A stretch of DNA of 11,886 nucleotides. It comes from Candidatus Bathyarchaeota archaeon. GTDB lineage: Archaea; Thermoproteota; Bathyarchaeia; TCS64. This document shows, one piece after another, positions 11 through 7,102 of the stretch. The stretch covers positions 1 to 11,886 of the forward strand of contig JBDRQD010000019.1 in assembly GCA_043826455.1 (NCBI GenBank). Direction: 5' to 3'. The notes under the pieces were generated by a model, which saw nothing but the letters and a program-made list of their open reading frames with translations, was not told the origin of the DNA and made no database searches. Position numbers and translations under genes: made by a program. The stretch's first letter is position 1. Each line of letters starts with the position of its first letter.

Positions 11-2566
11 ATGCAGGTTCTCCTCGTCGGCGGTGACCCCGGGGTTCTCGGCTCCGTTAAGAGGTTCCTTGAGGAAGAGAACCCCAAAATGCGGGTGGTC
101 TCCGTTCAGCGGCCGGAGGAGGCGCTGAGGCTTCTATCCTCGGAGGCGTTCGACTGCGTAGTCTCCGACTACACGATGCCGGGGATGAACGGAGTAGAGC
201 TGGCCAGAAGGATCAGGGAGACGAGCACCGTCCCGTTCATCATCTACAAGGATCGTGAGACCGTGGAGGTGGCTGAGGCCGCCTTCGAGGCCGGCGTGGA
301 CAGCTTCGAGCGGAGGATAGCCGACCCGAGGCACCTCCTGGTGCTCGCGAAACGGGTGAGGCTGGTGGTGGGGAGGCGCCGGTCAGAGGATCTGTACCGG
401 GGCGTGGTGGAGCGAGTCAGGGACCCACTCTGGATACTCGTAGGGACCACCATCGTACACGCCAACGAGGCGATGGCGGAGCTCCTCGGAGTCGACGGCC
501 CCGATGAGGTTATGGGTCACGAATCCACGGAGTGGGTCGTAGAGGAGGACCGGGAGAGGGTTCGGGAGACGGCCCTCGGCAGGCAGAGGGGAGAAGCCAT
601 GCCACAGCTATACGAGTTCACAATCCAAAGGCGGGACGGCCAGCGTAGACGGGTTGAGGCGTCAGCCTCCCTCATAAGCTACATGGGGAGCACGGCCAGC
701 CTCAGCTTCCTCCGCGACATAACCGAACGCAAGAAGTCTGAAGAGGAGTTGATCCGTCTAGCTGATGCCGTAAGGATGACCACAGATAGCATCATGATCT
801 CTGGCATTGATGGAAAGATCATAGATGTTAATGAAGCCACCCTGAAGATGTATGGCGCAGAGGACAGGGGAGAACTGATTGGAAAAAGCTCCTTCGACCT
901 CATCGCCCTCGAAGACAGAGAAAAAGCGTTAGCGGGTATGAGCGAGGTTCTGGAAAAGGGGTACGTGGAGAGTCGAGAGTATCGTATCTTACTGAAGGAT
1001 GGCCGTGAAACATCTGTGGAGATGAGCGTCGCCATCTTGAAGGGTCTGGATGGTAACCTAATGGGTTTTGTAGGCGTTTCAAGAGACATCACCGACCGCA
1101 AGCGGTTGGAGGAGGAGATGGGTAAGCAGAGGCTGACGTTGGAAGACCTCTACGAGAACGCGCCCGTAATGTACCTGACCCTCGACACGGAGGGCGTAAT
1201 AATCAAAGCCAACCAGACGATGTGTGGCGCCCTCGGCTACGCTAAGGAAAAGCTTGTAGGCAAAGAAATGTGCGCTCTCCTGCCGGAGGGAGACACCCAG
1301 ATATTCAAAGACAGCTTCCCAAGGTTACTCGAGATTGGAGGCATACGCGGTGCATTGAGGAGACTCGTCGGGAAGGATGGTAGAGTCATCGAGACATTGA
1401 TGGATACGTCGGTCGAGTACGGGGAGGATGGGAGTCCTCTCTACACCCGGGCTGTCTTCAGGGACATGACCACCCAGAGAGAGGTGGAGAGGAAACTACA
1501 GGAGTCGGAGGAGAAGATTCTCAACTTTTTCGATTTTACTAGAGAAGGGATAATAATAACTAATTACGCTGGAATAATAGAATCAGCAAACTCTGCGTCA
1601 ACCAGGATTCTAGGTTACAGCAAAGAAGAGCTTATAGGGAGTCCCTTAAATGGGCTCGGTTTTGACCCGCATCAAAGCCAAATGATGTTGAACAAGTTAA
1701 TCAAGAATGACTATATAGAATCTTATGAGACGGTTTATAAACGAAAAGGCGGGTCTTTTATCGACGTATTAACTAGCTCTTTTCTTCAAAGGGATCAAAA
1801 TGGGAGCATAGTACAGATTGGAACCATCTTCACAGACATCACTGAACGTAAACGAGCAGAGAGGATGATGAGGACGAAGCTGATGAAGTTCAGCATAGAA
1901 CCAGGGCATATTTACGTTGTAAAGGAGAAGGCCCCAGCCTTGGCTCTTGAGGCCTTCAAAGACCTCCTCAACATAGGTTATCAGGGAGTTGTTATCTCGA
2001 GAACACCTGAAAACATTTTTAGAAAAATGGTTAAGAATGACTTTAACTTCTATTGGCTCGCTGAAAAGGGTGAACGAGTTACACCTCCCAGTTATCAGAA
2101 AATTAAGGAACTTGTGGAGACCTATCCAAGGAACGCCGCTTTTTTGATAGACGGAATCGAGTACCTGGTTTTAAGGAGGGGATTTAAGGCACTCGTATTA
2201 TTTATTCAATGGCTTAGAGACCATGTAATCTTCACAGGGGATACAGCTATTCTGGTACTTGATCCTGTCCAATACACAGAACGAGAACTTCATCTACTAG
2301 GAAAAGATGCTGAGGAAGTTAATGTCCGGCATCCAAGTGTTTCTGCGGAGATGCTTGAGATCTTAAGCTTTGTCTATGCCCAAAATAGGGTGGGAGTTAA
2401 TCCAAACTACTCTGCTGTCGGACAGGATAGAAACCTGAGTAAGCCTACCCTGAAAAAAAGGATAAATCATCTTATCAACTCTGGCTATTTGACTGAAACT
2501 CCAGTTGGGAATAACAAACTTCTTCATATAACGGAGACTGGGCGAAGCATGCTTTTTCAGCAATAG
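11..2566 (+). CDS. Multidomain signalling regulator: degenerate receiver (REC) + 4 PAS/PAC + DUF835 (inactive KaiC-like) + C-terminal winged HTH
   Basis: 851-aa ORF. REC fold at the N-terminus (FDCVVSDYTMPGMNGVEL). Four PAS repeats end in RDITERK, RDITDRK, RDMTTQR and TDITERK. DUF835 signature IEPGHIYVV...GVVISRTPE...FYWL...FLIDGIEYL...GF lies at ~1895-2320. The C-terminal LSKPTLKKRINHLINSGYL...LLHITETGR looks like a MarR-type wHTH. Confidence 0.85.
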   Translation: MQVLLVGGDPGVLGSVKRFLEEENPKMRVVSVQRPEEALRLLSSEAFDCVVSDYTMPGMNGVELARRIRETSTVPFIIYKDRETVEVAEAAFEAGVDSFERRIADPRHLLVLAKRVRLVVGRRRSEDLYRGVVERVRDPLWILVGTTIVHANEAMAELLGVDGPDEVMGHESTEWVVEEDRERVRETALGRQRGEAMPQLYEFTIQRRDGQRRRVEASASLISYMGSTASLSFLRDITERKKSEEELIRLADAVRMTTDSIMISGIDGKIIDVNEATLKMYGAEDRGELIGKSSFDLIALEDREKALAGMSEVLEKGYVESREYRILLKDGRETSVEMSVAILKGLDGNLMGFVGVSRDITDRKRLEEEMGKQRLTLEDLYENAPVMYLTLDTEGVIIKANQTMCGALGYAKEKLVGKEMCALLPEGDTQIFKDSFPRLLEIGGIRGALRRLVGKDGRVIETLMDTSVEYGEDGSPLYTRAVFRDMTTQREVERKLQESEEKILNFFDFTREGIIITNYAGIIESANSASTRILGYSKEELIGSPLNGLGFDPHQSQMMLNKLIKNDYIESYETVYKRKGGSFIDVLTSSFLQRDQNGSIVQIGTIFTDITERKRAERMMRTKLMKFSIEPGHIYVVKEKAPALALEAFKDLLNIGYQGVVISRTPENIFRKMVKNDFNFYWLAEKGERVTPPSYQKIKELVETYPRNAAFLIDGIEYLVLRRGFKALVLFIQWLRDHVIFTGDTAILVLDPVQYTERELHLLGKDAEEVNVRHPSVSAEMLEILSFVYAQNRVGVNPNYSAVGQDRNLSKPTLKKRINHLINSGYLTETPVGNNKLLHITETGRSMLFQQ

Positions 2567-2590
2567 TTTACCTTCTTTACCCTTTTTTTA
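2567..2590 (+). terminator. Pyrimidine/T-rich archaeal-type terminator candidate
   Basis: tttaccttctttacccttttttta lies immediately after the stop at 2566. It could also contribute to an rsbR promoter. Confidence 0.5.
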
Positions 2591-2640
2591 TCCCATCTTA
2601 ATGTGTTGGTAAACAGCAACTATTGATCAGGTGTAATGAT

Positions 2641-3036
2641 ATGGAAATAGAGTTGGCTGAGATTAGAACCCCTGTGGTTGAGGTCTGGCAGAATGTGATA
2701 CTGGTCTCCATAGTAGGCACCCTAGACACCAACCGGGCGGGTGTGTTGATGGAGGCGCTTCTGATGAAGATCGTGGACAAAGAGGCGAAGGTCGTCATCC
2801 TGGACCTCGACGGCGTGCCATTAATAGACACGACCGTGGCCAAGCACATAATGGACACGATAGCGGCGGCTAAGCTGATGGGACCCGAGGTCATCGTCTC
2901 GGGGATAAACCCGGAGGTGGCCAAGACGATGGTGAAGCTTAAAATCCGGTTCGAAGCCGAGACCTACAGCGTGCTGAGGAGGGCGATGGAGTCCGCCTTA
3001 AAGCTTCTTGGGTATGAGCTCACCATATTAAAGTAG
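2641..3036 (+). CDS. rsbR: RsbR-type stressosome STAS protein lacking an N-terminal sensor domain
   Basis: TPVVEVWQNVILVSIVGTLDTNRA...ILDLDGVPLIDTTVA...SGINPEVAKTMV matches the RsbR STAS domain. Both phospho-Thr positions are kept (GTLDT and IDT, equivalent to B. subtilis T171/T205). ATG 2641 follows an AGGTG SD-like motif; the ORF track start at 2623 is less likely. Confidence 0.88.
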   Translation: MEIELAEIRTPVVEVWQNVILVSIVGTLDTNRAGVLMEALLMKIVDKEAKVVILDLDGVPLIDTTVAKHIMDTIAAAKLMGPEVIVSGINPEVAKTMVKLKIRFEAETYSVLRRAMESALKLLGYELTILK

Positions 3037-3077
3037 CGCCGGGAGAGGACGCAGCCGTAAGGGAGGGAGATCATGTT

Positions 3078-3449
3078 TTGTCGATGGGCAGGGTAGCGTC
3101 TGCGCTGAGGTTGGGGGACTGCCTTCTGGTGACCCCGCAGGGAGATCTCCACGACTCCGCCGCCGACCTGTTCCTAGAGGAGACCCTCGAGAGCCTGAAC
3201 AAGGCTAGATGCACTAGCCTGATACTGAACATGGGGAACGTCGAAGTCGTGGACAGCTTCATGGGCAGGACCATCGGCGAGTTGATCCAGGCCGCCTCCC
3301 TTCACGGTGTGAAGGTCGTGGTGGTGGGTCTGAGGCCCGAGGTGGCTATAACCATGGTGGAGATGAACATATCCATAGGCCACGTCGACACCGCCCTCAA
3401 CATCGACAATGCTCTAAACATCCTAAACAAGAAGAGGATTCGACCTTGA
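3078..3449 (+). CDS. rsbS: RsbS-type STAS protein (stressosome antagonist)
   Basis: LLVTPQGDLHD...VEVVDSFMGRTI...VVGLRPEVAITMVEM...TALN. The DSF motif carries the RsbS phospho-Ser (S59 equivalent). GGAGGGAGA lies upstream; the start is TTG 3078 or ATG 3084. Confidence 0.92.
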   Translation: MSMGRVASALRLGDCLLVTPQGDLHDSAADLFLEETLESLNKARCTSLILNMGNVEVVDSFMGRTIGELIQAASLHGVKVVVVGLRPEVAITMVEMNISIGHVDTALNIDNALNILNKKRIRP

Positions 3450-3862
3450 TGCCTTGTGAGGATGTTGAGGTGGAGGAGATACGTACGGAATCGGACATCG
3501 TGAGGTGTCGGTCCCTGGCTAGGGCCTTCGCCGGGAGGCTGGGCTTCGGCAAAGTGGATCAGACCCGCATCACCACAGCCGTCTCGGAGATCGCTAGGAA
3601 CACGCTTGTCCACGGCGGTGGGGGCAGTATGACGATCAGGGTAGTCGAGGGAAACGGCCTAGAGGTTCTGTTTGTCGACGCCGGCCCCGGCATCCAGGAC
3701 ATCGACTTAGCGATGAGAGACGGCTACTCGACCGCTGGGAGTCTTGGACTGGGGCTGGGCGGCGCCAGGAGGCTCATTGACGAATTCAGTTTAGAGTCGA
3801 AGGTAGGCGCTGGAACGAGGGTAACTATGAGAAAGTACCCGTCGAAGCAGGCGTGGGGCTGA
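3449..3862 (+). CDS. rsbT: RsbT Ser/Thr switch kinase (GHKL/HATPase_c)
   Basis: ESDIVRCR...LGFGKVDQTRITTAVSEIARN (N box), DAGPGI (G1), DGYSTAGSLGLGLGGARRLIDEF (G2), GTRV. A TGATG overlap with the rsbS stop gives ATG 3449. Confidence 0.95.
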   Translation: MPCEDVEVEEIRTESDIVRCRSLARAFAGRLGFGKVDQTRITTAVSEIARNTLVHGGGGSMTIRVVEGNGLEVLFVDAGPGIQDIDLAMRDGYSTAGSLGLGLGGARRLIDEFSLESKVGAGTRVTMRKYPSKQAWG

Positions 3863-4443
3863 TGCCTGGGTTGAGGGTTGGAGTAGCATCCAAACCGATG
3901 AAAGGCTTCGAGGTGAACGGGGACGCACACCTCCACCTGGAGGCCGAGGGCCGGAGCCTCGTCGCTGTCTTCGACGGCCTCGGCCACGGAGCGGACGCCT
4001 CGGTGGCCTCGGAGAGGGCCCGGAGATACGTGGAGACCCATGCCTTGGACGGCCTTGAGGAATTGTTCCATGGTTGCCACGCCGAGATCGAGGACACCAG
4101 GGGCGTCTGCATGGGAGTGTTCAGGGTCGACAGAGGGTCGGGCAGGATCGAATACTGTGGCGTGGGGAACACCGCTGCATGGATACTCGGGGAGGAGCAT
4201 AGAAGAATGGTCTCCGTATCAGGTATCGTGGGCTACACCATGGAGAGCCTCCTCAGATTTGAGTACCGTTATGATCGGGAGACGGTCTTGATGCTCCACA
4301 CCGACGGCGTCTCTTCCAGGTTCAGCCTCCCTAGCCTAGGCGCGGTGAGGGATGACCCTCAGAGGGCTGCTGAGGAGATCCTGGAGGGGTGGGGGAAGGA
4401 GACCGATGACGCCACAGTGGTGATAGCCGTTGAAAGGAGATAG
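3862..4443 (+). CDS. rsbX: RsbX-like PPM/PP2C (SpoIIE-family) Ser/Thr phosphatase
   Basis: Metal-binding motifs NGD, DGLGHG, HTDGV and DDATVV are present, plus TRG and GVGN. At ~193 aa it is a stand-alone phosphatase. A TGATG overlap with the rsbT stop gives ATG 3862. Confidence 0.9.
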   Translation: MPGLRVGVASKPMKGFEVNGDAHLHLEAEGRSLVAVFDGLGHGADASVASERARRYVETHALDGLEELFHGCHAEIEDTRGVCMGVFRVDRGSGRIEYCGVGNTAAWILGEEHRRMVSVSGIVGYTMESLLRFEYRYDRETVLMLHTDGVSSRFSLPSLGAVRDDPQRAAEEILEGWGKETDDATVVIAVERR

Positions 4444-4447
4444 TGCA

Positions 4448-6394
4448 TTGAAGGACCCGGTGGATAGGCTGGCAGAGCTGCTCCGTGAGTACAGCAGAGA
4501 CGGAAGCGAGGATGTCCTGTACAGGGCGTCCCTGCTGGGGAGGGAGCTTCATGGGTTGATGACGCCTCCCGACAGGGTTTTGGGCTTCTTCCTGGAGGCC
4601 CTGAGGCGGGTCTCTCAGGTGTCTGCTGAGTTTGAGGGTCTGCTCCTCGAGGTGATGATCACCTACAGCTCCAGCTTCCTCGAGGCGGAGGCGGCGCTTA
4701 GGGAGAGTGAGGAGCGTTACCGTAGCCTCGTGGAGAACTCGCCCAACGCTATCTCGGTCATGGTAGAAGGTAGGATCGTTTACGCTAACAAGAGGAGAGC
4801 GGAACTCGCAGGAAAAGACGATCCATCCGAGTTGGTTGGCACAAGCGTCATCTCTCAGATAGTGGAAGGAGACAGGGAGTCTATAGTAGAGAGAGAGGAG
4901 GCAAGAGAAAGAGGGGAGAAGCCTCCATCACCATTCGAGTACAGGATGTTGAGGGCGGATGGCAGCGTCAGAGACATCGTATGCTACAGCTCAGCTATTA
5001 GCTATCAAGGTAAAAACGCTGTGCAGCACGTGCTCCTCGATGTCACCGAGGAGAAGCGGTACGAGGAGAGGCTTGAGACTCTGCACCGGCACGCATTGGG
5101 GCTTGCCCTGATGGAGACCTTTGAGGGGATTGGTGAGGTGACTATGAAGGCGGTTGAGGATGTCCTCGGATACAACATTGGCAGCTTCGGGGTCGTTGAG
5201 GGTGAATTCCTCCGGTATATATACCTAAAGGGAACTGGGAGGGGTGAGACCTTTAAGATGCCTTTAGATGGGCCGGGAGTCACTGTTAGGGCACTCAGGC
5301 TCGGGGAATCTCAGCTAGTCCATGACACCCGCGTGGAGGAGAACTATGTGATTGGCCTCACTGAAGGCGAATACCCGAGTCTATCTGAGCTCGCGGTTCC
5401 CGTTCACCTCGAAGGGAAACCCGTTGCCGTGATAAACGTGGAGAGCACGGAGGTAGGTGCTTTCACGGTGATGGATCAACGGCTCTTGGAGGTCTTCGCA
5501 GAGCACGTGGCTTCAGCGTATGGGAGGCTCCAGCATCATGCGCTACTAATAGAGGCTGAGGAGCGGTACAGGGAGGTGGTGGATAACAGCAACGACGGCA
5601 TCCTCGCCATCAGCCTCGACGGGGTGGTCACCTTCTCGAACCGGAGGATGCTGGAGATGACTGGGTACGGGCCGGGGGAGGTGGTGGGCAGGAGCTTCTC
5701 TGACCTCATCAAGGTGGATGCTAGGCAGAGGATGGTTGAGCTTCTTCAGTCAGCCACTAAGAGGGAGGTGACTGGCCTCTCAGAGTTTGAGTTGACCCGC
5801 GGGGACGGGTCGACGCTGTACGTGGAGGCTTCGGCCGCCGCCATAATGAGGGGTGGGGCCCTTGCGGGGGTTCAGGTGATCTGCAGGGACATCGGGGAGC
5901 GGAAGGCTGGTGAGCGCCGTGTCAGGGTGCTGGCCTACCAGCTGAACGGCTTGAAGCCGGGCGGCTGCTTCATCAGCGACTCCCATGAGCGGTGCTTCAA
6001 GGCGTTCGCCGACCTGACCATGCATGGGGTCCCGGGTCTCTGCTTGGCGAGGGAGGACCCTGAGGCATTGGTGTCCCGGTATGGCATCGGCAGGGAGAGC
6101 ATCGTCCTGGTGTCGACGAGGCCGGTGGCGGGGTTTGAGGTTGTCAGGGACCTGCAGGAGGTGAGCCGGCTCATCGCAGCGTTCCTCGCGAAGAACGGGG
6201 AGCCCGTGGTGGTGCTGGATGGCCTGGAGTACCTGGTCAGCCGGTTCGGGTTCGACCCGGTCTACGGCTTCATCCAGGAGAAGCGGTTCGACTTCCTGGA
6301 TGCCGGCGCCGTCCTCCTGGTACCTGTGGACTCGGCGACCCTCAGCGACCGGGAGAGGGCCCTCATAGCCAGCGAGGTAGCTACCCTCATGTGA
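4448..6394 (+). CDS. RsbU_N-like domain + PAS + GAF + PAS + DUF835 (inactive KaiC-like) signalling protein
   Basis: The N-terminus LAELLREYSRDGSEDVLYRASLLGREL...PPDRV...LLLEVMITYSSSF resembles the RsbU N-terminal domain. It is followed by PAS (YRSLVENSPNAI...DVTEEK), GAF (GVTVRAL...SELAVPV...VINVES...FTVMDQRLLEVFAEH), PAS (...RDIGERK) and DUF835 (GLCLAREDP...VVLDGLEYLVSRFGF). AAGGAG at 4434-4439 favours TTG 4448 over 4430. Confidence 0.85.
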   Translation: MKDPVDRLAELLREYSRDGSEDVLYRASLLGRELHGLMTPPDRVLGFFLEALRRVSQVSAEFEGLLLEVMITYSSSFLEAEAALRESEERYRSLVENSPNAISVMVEGRIVYANKRRAELAGKDDPSELVGTSVISQIVEGDRESIVEREEARERGEKPPSPFEYRMLRADGSVRDIVCYSSAISYQGKNAVQHVLLDVTEEKRYEERLETLHRHALGLALMETFEGIGEVTMKAVEDVLGYNIGSFGVVEGEFLRYIYLKGTGRGETFKMPLDGPGVTVRALRLGESQLVHDTRVEENYVIGLTEGEYPSLSELAVPVHLEGKPVAVINVESTEVGAFTVMDQRLLEVFAEHVASAYGRLQHHALLIEAEERYREVVDNSNDGILAISLDGVVTFSNRRMLEMTGYGPGEVVGRSFSDLIKVDARQRMVELLQSATKREVTGLSEFELTRGDGSTLYVEASAAAIMRGGALAGVQVICRDIGERKAGERRVRVLAYQLNGLKPGGCFISDSHERCFKAFADLTMHGVPGLCLAREDPEALVSRYGIGRESIVLVSTRPVAGFEVVRDLQEVSRLIAAFLAKNGEPVVVLDGLEYLVSRFGFDPVYGFIQEKRFDFLDAGAVLLVPVDSATLSDRERALIASEVATLM

Positions 6395-6406: not shown

Positions 6407-7102
6407 TTATAGGAGCCGGATCTTCTCCAGCCCCTGCTCCCCGTAGGACACCTGGTCGCCGAAGAGGCCTCTGAACCCATGTACCTCTCTGCTCTCATGT
6501 GCCTCAGGGTTTAGGAGGAAGATGGCTGTGAACCGCGGCTCGTCAAGCCTTCTCAGAGTCTCCTGGGCGAACCCGTAGGCCGCCTCGAAGCCTGCTGAGA
6601 GTGCGTGATCGGTGAGATTATCATAGACGAGGGCCAGCGGCTCATCCCTGTGGGCGTCCAGGATTGGGGAGAGGATGGTCTGAGGCGTCACAGGGACTAG
6701 CTCCACGGCCTCGTCCCCCAGCAGGGCCCTGTGGAGGGCGCTGGTGCTGGGCGATAGCACGGCCACCCCTTCCCCGTAGGCCCGGGCCTCCAAGAAGTCT
6801 CTCACACACCTCTCATAGGGCGTAGAGGGGCTGTACTCCATAAGGATCTTTCTGCCCCGGAGCTCCATGTGGCTCAGGCCCAGCGCACCCGAGAACCCGG
6901 TCCTCCGGGAGGCCTCCAGGTGTCTCCTCAGGTACCCAGCCAGCTCGGCGGTGAAGGGCTTGGTGACGTAGCCGTCGGCACCCGCCTCGGCGGCCATCCT
7001 CCTGTCCACGTCCCTCCCCAGGGCTGTGAACATCACCACCGGGATGTGCCTCGTCCTCGGCTGCTCCTTCAGAGCCCTGCACACCTGGAAGCTGCGCGCG
7101 GG
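6407..7102 (-). pseudogene. 5'-truncated response regulator: C-terminal half of REC + inactive KaiC/DUF835-like domain
   Basis: The frame reads PARSFQVCRALKEQPRTRHIPVVMFTALG...GADGYVTKPF, i.e. only the second half of a receiver. The acidic pocket and phospho-Asp are absent and an in-frame TAA lies at 7118-7120 inside tbp. The C-terminal GRKILMEY...LVYDNLTD...GFEAAYGF...TAIFLLNPEAHESREV...LF resembles inactive KaiC-like domains. It could still be translated from GTG 7084. Confidence 0.7.

Follow-up and report, generated by a model that had tools for sequence, protein, structure and literature searches.

A contig from a Candidatus Bathyarchaeota archaeon (JBDRQD010000019.1) encodes an rsbR-rsbS-rsbT-rsbX operon of the stressosome type, whose fifth gene product combines an RsbU_N head, a PAS-GAF-PAS sensor stack, and a C-terminal DUF835 domain. 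The window analyzed here is the whole of this contig (C19; 11,886 nucleotides, nt) in a 2.95-Mb assembly (GCA_043826455.1; G000) that is 97.7% complete with 7.2% contamination. Judged by sequence, the four rsb genes and the output gene are a real, intact archaeal stressosome module. Its RsbR is sensorless, a feature that an earlier annotation made from the DNA letters alone (the sequence-only reading) had not mentioned, and the fusion of RsbU_N to DUF835 is, on present evidence, a singleton. The best explanation overall, which we hold as a whole with moderate confidence, is that a switch of bacterial origin would work here as a minimal stressosome and that its output protein is a mosaic, with the RsbU_N head grafted onto a native archaeal PAS-GAF-PAS-DUF835 tail.

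The rsbR-S-T-X Module

The five genes lie on the forward strand in open reading frames without internal stops. The first, rsbR (2641..3036), encodes 131 amino acids (aa) that comprise a STAS domain only (Pfam STAS, E = 7.5e-17), with DT motifs at T30 and T64. A Shine-Dalgarno-like AGGTG (2629..2633, forward strand), 7 nt before the ATG at 2641, backs this short start. It is followed by rsbS (3078..3449), which specifies a STAS protein of 121-123 aa (Pfam STAS, 6.5e-13) with the DSF phospho-acceptor S60, numbered from the TTG at 3078. The next two genes encode a 137-aa GHKL Ser/Thr switch kinase, RsbT (3449..3862; Pfam HATPase_c, 5.1e-11, and HATPase_c_2), and a 193-aa single-domain PP2C feedback phosphatase, RsbX (3862..4443; Pfam SpoIIE, 7e-10). 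The output gene (4448..6394) begins with TTG and encodes 648 aa with the Pfam architecture RsbU_N-PAS-GAF-PAS-DUF835. The tight packing described in the sequence-only reading is seen at three junctions, where the genes overlap by TGATG (3447-3451 and 3860-3864) or stand 4 nt apart (before the TTG at 4448), but not at the first, where rsbR and rsbS are 41 nt apart.

Comparison with solved structures assigns each protein to its type. RsbR best matches Vibrio RsbR (7o0i, E = 9.7e-28) and Listeria RsbR (6qcm, E = 6e-23), with RsbS structures ranking below, while the best matches of RsbS are Bacillus subtilis RsbS (6jhk, E = 2.9e-20) and Listeria RsbS (1.6e-19). RsbT is a SpoIIAB-like kinase by the same comparison, and RsbX matches 3zt9 (E = 4e-20), which we take to be MtX of Moorella thermoacetica, and B. 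subtilis RsbX (3w40, E = 1.8e-10). T30 and T64 of RsbR correspond in the alignment to the DT motifs in RsbR of Listeria, and S60 of RsbS lines up with the RsbS serine that is replaced by alanine in the variant chain 9o4r_a; these residues are presumably equivalent to B. subtilis T171, T205, and S59. In RsbT, the N-box (E47..N51), D77, and the G-boxes are present, and the N, G1, and G2 boxes are invariant in 40 aligned RsbT sequences. RsbX has its NGD, VFDGLGHG, HTDG, and DDAT motifs in place. Of the features by which an rsbRSTX module is recognized, adjacent genes in R, S, T, X order, phospho-sites, and catalytic motifs of kinase and phosphatase are found, and the earlier description of five genes with phospho-acceptor and catalytic motifs intact is upheld by Pfam, the PDB alignments, and the uninterrupted frames.

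Partners of the SigB type were sought across the whole assembly. The search turned up no STAS protein of the RsbV type, no SpoIIE phosphatase besides RsbX, and no free-standing kinase like RsbW, sigma factors lying outside it. RsbX is the only SpoIIE match, RsbR and RsbS are the only STAS matches, and RsbT is the only short HATPase_c_2 match; proteins with HATPase domains of histidine-kinase size are encoded elsewhere in the genome, none with an RsbU_N head. RsbV and RsbW, which had been described as absent from the window, were not found in the rest of the assembly either.

An RsbR Without a Sensor Domain

RsbR begins about eight residues ahead of the first STAS strand, and therefore has no linker helix; it also has no globin or PAS sensor. 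An in-frame stop upstream of the ATG at 2641 leaves room for 13 codons (stop-to-stop frame from 2602), and RsbR orthologues of 129-131 aa are known from a second genome of the same genus (G046) and as P0040 (73% identical RsbR) and P0041. A sensor-bearing RsbR paralogue was found in neither G000 nor G046, each having two STAS matches only, RsbR and RsbS. An N-terminal sensory domain followed by a linker helix, by which RsbR is otherwise recognized, is thus the feature that the module lacks. Bacteria differ in this respect: an RsbR match was present at 65 of 80 fetched rsbT loci, and all of these had room for a head (minimum 65 residues, median 194, measured from the upstream stop).

STAS-only proteins resembling RsbR are not unique to this lineage, since the Atlas holds clusters of short bacterial STAS-only proteins of 129 aa (65 members) and 140 aa (320 members), which are known by sequence and not by gene context. 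Two STAS matches on Priestia plasmids were considered as short RsbR proteins in an operon, and neither was one. A metagenome scan with the short-RsbR alignment returned a single locus, its sequence the same as that of G046, and no new context. In published structures, the N-domains of the stressosome project as turrets from a core made of STAS domains (PMC6760441). Since published cores consist of STAS domains, it is plausible by analogy that RsbR could assemble with RsbS without an N-domain, the canonical sensor being absent.

The Output Protein

The RsbU_N head occupies 4472..4666 on the forward strand. Its Pfam match (PF08673; 18.4 bits, the cut-off being 25.5; E = 0.0025) is at noise level, since partial matches of like score occur in 15 other genomes of 401, and this score was dropped as proof in favor of the orthologue. 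The fifth gene of the G046 operon encodes an RsbU_N head that scores 27.4 bits, over the cut-off, and is 28% identical to the head in the window. A two-sequence profile of both heads matches B. subtilis RsbU (2j6y, E = 1.7e-6), and E21, Y25, L67, and I71 of the window align with E24, Y28, I74, and I78 of RsbU, which contact RsbT (PMC12143880). In the head alignment, E21 is retained in 36 of 36 rows, Y25 in 22, L66 in all 36, and Y73 in 32. The earlier assignment of RsbU_N, which fails by the Pfam threshold, is thus carried by the syntenic orthologue, the 2j6y match, and the contact residues, and the head is a genuine RsbU_N as far as sequence can tell.

A search with the head profile gave 130 matches among 1.84 billion representatives (taken at 50% identity; many matches are partial on short contigs). 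The head is N-terminal in 111, the other 19 being left out because their best stretch lies inside long PAS proteins, and Pfam assigns RsbU_N to most of these 111 nearest heads. Among the 20,913 open frames of the G000 genome, a profile search found no second RsbU_N head; the profile includes the window's own head, so that only the lack of a second match is informative. Predicted as a 2:2 complex, RsbT and the head score 0.59 against 0.01 for the best control, with a partner pLDDT of 81 and agreement between runs on at least 80% of contacts. The mark applied to such scores is reached by 116 of 157 solved pairs and 2 of 215 mismatched pairs, and at 0.60 or below by 18 of the 157 and by both mismatches. 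The prediction counts weakly for binding between RsbT and the head, as family likeness may explain the score. In four Bathyarchaeia clusters (P0048, P0049, P0050, P0051), an RsbU_N-like head precedes a PAS domain, a pair of them, or nothing at all; such proteins would be RsbT receivers that lack an output domain.

Behind the head lie a PAS-GAF-PAS sensor stack of native type (4712..5905, Pfam) and DUF835 (5978..6376), both on the forward strand. DUF835 (PF05763) is matched with 72.9 bits against a cut-off of 33.1 (E = 5.8e-19). Its model, built from 15 sequences (pLDDT 88.4), has the KaiC/RecA fold, superposing on FlaH (Z 13.8, rmsd 3.0 over 140 residues) and on KaiC CI (Z 12.0); it also matches PH0284, and its top Foldseek match is KaiC CI. 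No GxxGxGKT follows strand 1, so that the Walker A loop is missing, and a Walker-B-like LDG motif is retained. The C-terminal domain is accordingly what the sequence-only reading took it for, a DUF835 with the features of an inactivated KaiC-like domain.

The PAS-GAF part is 39-49% identical to the PAS-GAF units of a histidine kinase in genome G022, and the tail of PAS and DUF835 shares 44% identity over 322 aa with the REC-PAS-DUF835 regulator encoded behind that kinase. A paralogue on contig C29 of the assembly has the architecture GAF-GAF-PAS-DUF835. Because of these likenesses, the PAS-DUF835 tail appears to be a native, established output with exchangeable heads. Published work counts DUF835 among the inactivated KaiC outputs, in regulators of the REC-DUF835 and REC-PAS-PAS-DUF835 types, and cites a proposal in which DUF835 signals through an active KaiC ATPase (PMC5847659). 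Five strong matches to KaiC (E <= 3e-48) occur in the G000 genome, all outside the window. In four genomes of one genus of the order (G002, G003, G004, and G006; loci L118-L121 and L127), a stand-alone DUF835 gene is convergent with an active KaiC gene, and a ribonucleotide reductase lies next to them.

Proposed Mechanism and Conservation

From the parts, motifs, fold, and synteny observed, we propose an assembly, phosphorylation and binding steps, a direction of flow, and a partner. The STAS-only RsbR would form with RsbS a turret-less shell that holds RsbT. RsbT would phosphorylate T30 and T64 of RsbR and S60 of RsbS and then be released, and RsbX would reset the system. Free RsbT would bind the RsbU_N dimer and linker and order the coiled coil, so that the domains behind it dimerize or change orientation in the manner of B. 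subtilis RsbU, while ligands of the PAS and GAF domains would gate the signal from RsbT. DUF835, having no P-loop for ATP, would pass the signal by protein contact, most likely to a KaiC-family ATPase of the genome. The least certain step is the input. Because RsbR has no sensor, it would probably enter through the balance between RsbT and RsbX (nucleotide, metal, or protein level) or through a partner in trans, with the shell serving as a threshold device and not as a sensor.

Conservation was examined in relatives. The operon of G046 has the same R-S-T-X-RsbU_N order and the same short RsbR, with identities of 63, 41, 58, and 35% for R, S, T, and X, and the rsbRST sequences of the two genomes form one clade with support 1.0 (FastTree, midpoint root, 69 loci at which R, S, and T were all matched, the nearest bacterial donors being outside the sample). 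The G046 output is an RsbU_N-HisKA-HATPase protein without a sensor domain. RsbT was found in two of the order's 79 genomes, in 5 of 401 sampled from the class, and in 2 of 401 from the phylum; DUF835 is found in 12 of the 79, and the two occur together in G000 only. An RsbT-like match in genome G854 was dropped, as it sits in a hydrogenase cluster.

A number of these and other results weigh against the proposed mechanism. The operon is rare, at 2 of 79 genomes of its order, and the fusion protein is a cluster of one member. DUF835 had no match in G046. Behind the 111 N-terminal heads are kinases, PP2C, GGDEF, HD, or PAS only, and a local DUF835 profile found DUF835 behind none of them; a second search, which scored 7998 candidates, gave 20 RsbU_N proteins, comprising 5 kinases, 14 with PAS only, and the window's own, so that the single DUF835 case among the 20 is the protein itself. 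The window itself has no gene for an active KaiC, and the closest candidate for an iKaiC (inactive KaiC-like) partner, at 6407..7084, is truncated. No sensor was identified, RsbR_N, RsbRD_N, and protoglobin being without a match in G000 (97.7% complete) or G046 (90%). Recent rearrangement of the neighborhood is seen in an 80% duplicate of 5899-6907 on contig C29, adjoining a transposase. The sequence-only reading had proposed that a stressosome was rewired into KaiC/DUF835 signaling and had named a gene order not conserved in relatives among the findings that would refute it. The parts, the fold, and the sole head agree with that proposal, but the relatives surveyed speak against conservation of the coupling, and by sequence the DUF835 wiring appears to be a domain swap specific to this lineage.

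A Second Operon Type in the Class

Four other genomes of the class (G472, G671, G879, and G523) carry rsbR-rsbS-rsbT-rsbX-rsbT2 without RsbU_N (L090 9715-13996; L097 11737-14629; L136 6626-11103; L096). An iKaiC gene lies directly upstream of rsbR in G472, G671, and G879, recognized by DUF7504/ATPase matches in the first two and by similar sequence in G879, and an additional active KaiC gene lies two genes further up in G472. The G523 contig begins within rsbR, and the rsbR of G671 appears short and frameshifted. The four genomes form one clade (support 1.0), whereas in the same tree their union with the clade of G000 and G046 has no support (0.29); for these reasons the iKaiC adjacency counts as one inherited event across two families. 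BLASTP gave no alignment between the DUF835 of the window and the iKaiC of G472, so that different iKaiC families are involved.

The second operon type gives what appears to be indirect support for a link between stressosomes and KaiC, by another route and with another iKaiC family. We suggest, tentatively and with more doubt than conviction, that this lineage has a natural turret-less stressosome switched without an RsbR sensor, and that archaea of this class have tied the stressosome to the KaiC family twice, once through the fusion and once through an iKaiC gene at the head of the second operon type, with an active KaiC gene in one genome.

Alternative Explanations

An unselected, recent domain shuffle, in which recombination in a rearranging region swapped a kinase-type output for a DUF835 tail and left RsbT binding without a useful effect, would account for the singleton fusion and the kinase of the sister genome G046, and the truncated REC-iKaiC neighbor and the 80% duplicate with its transposase on C29 speak in the same sense. 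We nevertheless consider it unlikely, as 648 codons are in frame with every domain whole, and as the head, only 28% identical to that of G046, has yet kept its RsbT-contact residues. Near-identical pieces of the operon also occur in the runs of two other studies (X2 and X4), none of them over DUF835.

A reversed flow of signal is a little less probable again. Here the PAS-GAF-PAS-DUF835 protein would be a sensor that replaces the one missing from RsbR and binds or frees RsbT through RsbU_N, depending on PAS and GAF ligands or on a KaiC partner, the output being RsbT kinase activity on RsbR and RsbS or on another substrate. Such a reading fits the lack of an RsbR sensor, with none found in trans, and the confinement of the operon's sensory domains to the output protein; the iKaiC gene upstream of rsbR in G472, G671, and G879 also stands where an input might be expected. 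G046, however, combines the same short RsbR with a sensorless RsbU_N-HisKA-HATPase protein, so that RsbR lost its sensor independently of PAS or GAF domains here, and RsbU_N acts downstream of RsbT in the systems studied (PMC12143880, PMC9237108).

That no megadalton particle forms, and that RsbR and RsbS instead work as a small anti-kinase pair of STAS proteins in a simple partner switch, is improbable. RsbR has no counterpart of the linker helix described in PMC9237128, but the core is built of STAS domains, RsbS alone can pack as a 60-mer in crystals (PMC6760441), and the R-type and S-type sequences remain distinct. This arrangement is compatible with the phosphorylation, RsbU_N-binding, and DUF835 steps of the proposed mechanism.

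The integrity of the contig bears on the last alternative. TBP, TFB, Alba, and a gene with an Lrp domain lie on the contig with the operon (Pfam), which marks the contig as archaeal. With the independent assembly pieces, they bear out the view that it is archaeal and not evidently chimeric. The names of close homologues of the RsbU_N head point to Bathyarchaeia as the probable host. Independent assembly of run X1, possibly the source sample, gave a piece of 5623 nt over 52-5674 and another over 5652-6280, which crosses the joint between the second PAS domain and DUF835. Run X2 bridges 5095-5792 and also holds parts of rsbR, rsbS, and rsbX and the RsbU_N head; its near lack of cover over DUF835 is not informative. 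Run X4 holds 4639-4912 and 5051-5428 without differences from the window. The whole operon is in no single independent piece, and the PAS-DUF835 joint is covered by X1 only. Contigs of the RNA run X6 match 3336-3615 and 3807-4111 at about 97.5% identity, by which transcription is not shown. The tetranucleotide composition of the operon falls at the 22nd percentile of 756 windows and is no outlier, and therefore gives no sign of recent transfer. Joining of the rsb operon to the DUF835 tail of another strain in assembly is very unlikely, for although the assembly has 7.2% contamination and the rise in X1 depth from 10.7 to 14-58 beyond 5650 points to related sequences in the sample, an X1 piece crosses the PAS-DUF835 joint, X2 bridges 5095-5792, and PAS-DUF835 joints occur naturally in C29 and G022.

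The G000 genome has at least 3 TBP, 11 TFB, and 7 Alba homologues, and one of each lies within 4 kb in the window.

Neighboring Genes

The operon is preceded on the same strand by a gene for a response regulator with four PAS domains, REC-PAS(x4)-DUF835-winged helix (11..2566, Pfam), which ends 74 nt short of rsbR, a run of T lying in the interval, and is probably a separate transcript. In its product, a likely DNA-binding domain would follow the iKaiC domain. Over 1500-2500, GC content drops to about 41%, compared with 55-64% in the surroundings, which suggests that this gene is a mosaic. No REC-PAS-DUF835-winged helix neighbor is present at the G046 operon.

On the other side, a 5′-truncated REC-iKaiC-like gene (6407..7084, reverse strand) converges on the operon and abuts the TBP stop. 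Its REC match covers profile positions 61-104 only, the first half of the domain being missing, and an intact homologue of 288 aa is found in genome G041. Homologues in the Atlas lead to DUF7504/KaiC clusters. The copy of this gene on C29 is broken and adjoins the transposase. A single-sequence fold of the product reached a pLDDT of 40 and was not used.

Relation to Known Systems and Implications

rsbRSTX modules are known in some archaea, and the proteins headed by RsbU_N downstream of them include phosphatases, c-di-GMP enzymes, and kinases (PMC9237108). RsbU_N has been proposed as an exchangeable input (PMC12143880) and drives PPM, GGDEF, and histidine-kinase outputs (PMC12143880, PMC9237108). 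On a Halanaeroarchaeum plasmid (NZ_CP087725.1, L146 5611-11960), an archaeal stressosome comprises a PAS-RsbR, RsbS, RsbT, RsbX, and a large PAS protein.

A close likeness is to the MtR-MtS-MtT-MtX-MtG module of Moorella thermoacetica, in which rsbRSTX is likewise followed directly by a protein that joins an RsbU_N head to a sensor stack and an output other than a phosphatase (RsbU_N-GAF-GGDEF; PMC12143880). The module in the window differs in being archaeal, in its non-enzymatic DUF835 output, and in an RsbR without an N-terminal domain; by analogy it resembles the Moorella type while failing one defining feature, the RsbR sensor. With the stressosomes of B. subtilis and Listeria it has in common the R, S, T, and X homologues, the phospho-sites and motifs, and the RsbT-contact residues of RsbU_N, whereas the RsbU phosphatase domain, RsbV, and RsbW were not found in the assembly and a single turretless RsbR takes the place of several sensor-bearing paralogues. 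Proteobacterial rsbRSTX operons with an RsbU_N-histidine kinase share the gene order (PMC9237108, PMC12143880), and G046 has exactly that output type; in the window, DUF835 replaces HisKA-HATPase and RsbR is without a sensor. The tail is shared with receiver-headed PAS-DUF835 regulators, but the head is RsbU_N, which belongs to a Ser/Thr partner switch, and not a phosphorylated receiver.

Archaeal rsbRSTX and swappable RsbU_N outputs are known already, while the DUF835 output and the sensorless rsbR operon appear to be new. The literature search, which covered titles and abstracts, found no description of either a stressosome-DUF835 coupling or a sensorless rsbR operon. The weight of the finding is limited in that the fusion is a singleton, the organism is uncultured, and both halves are known.

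In the usual model, sensing takes place in the N-terminal turrets of RsbR. An operon with a bare-STAS RsbR that is shared with a relative amounts to a natural deletion experiment on turret sensing, and how stressosomes sense is still open (PMC9237108). The outputs of RsbU_N, which include PPM, GGDEF, HD, and histidine-kinase domains, would be extended to a non-enzymatic one. DUF835 and iKaiC domains are catalogued as archaeal outputs, and a protein that could be switched on in vitro with RsbT would make a search for DUF835 partners practical. If the more tentative suggestion made above is true, of a turret-less stressosome in a class that has twice tied the stressosome to the KaiC family, it would offer both a direct biochemical way into the proposed KaiC hub of archaea and, in a natural system, a test of whether sensing requires turrets.

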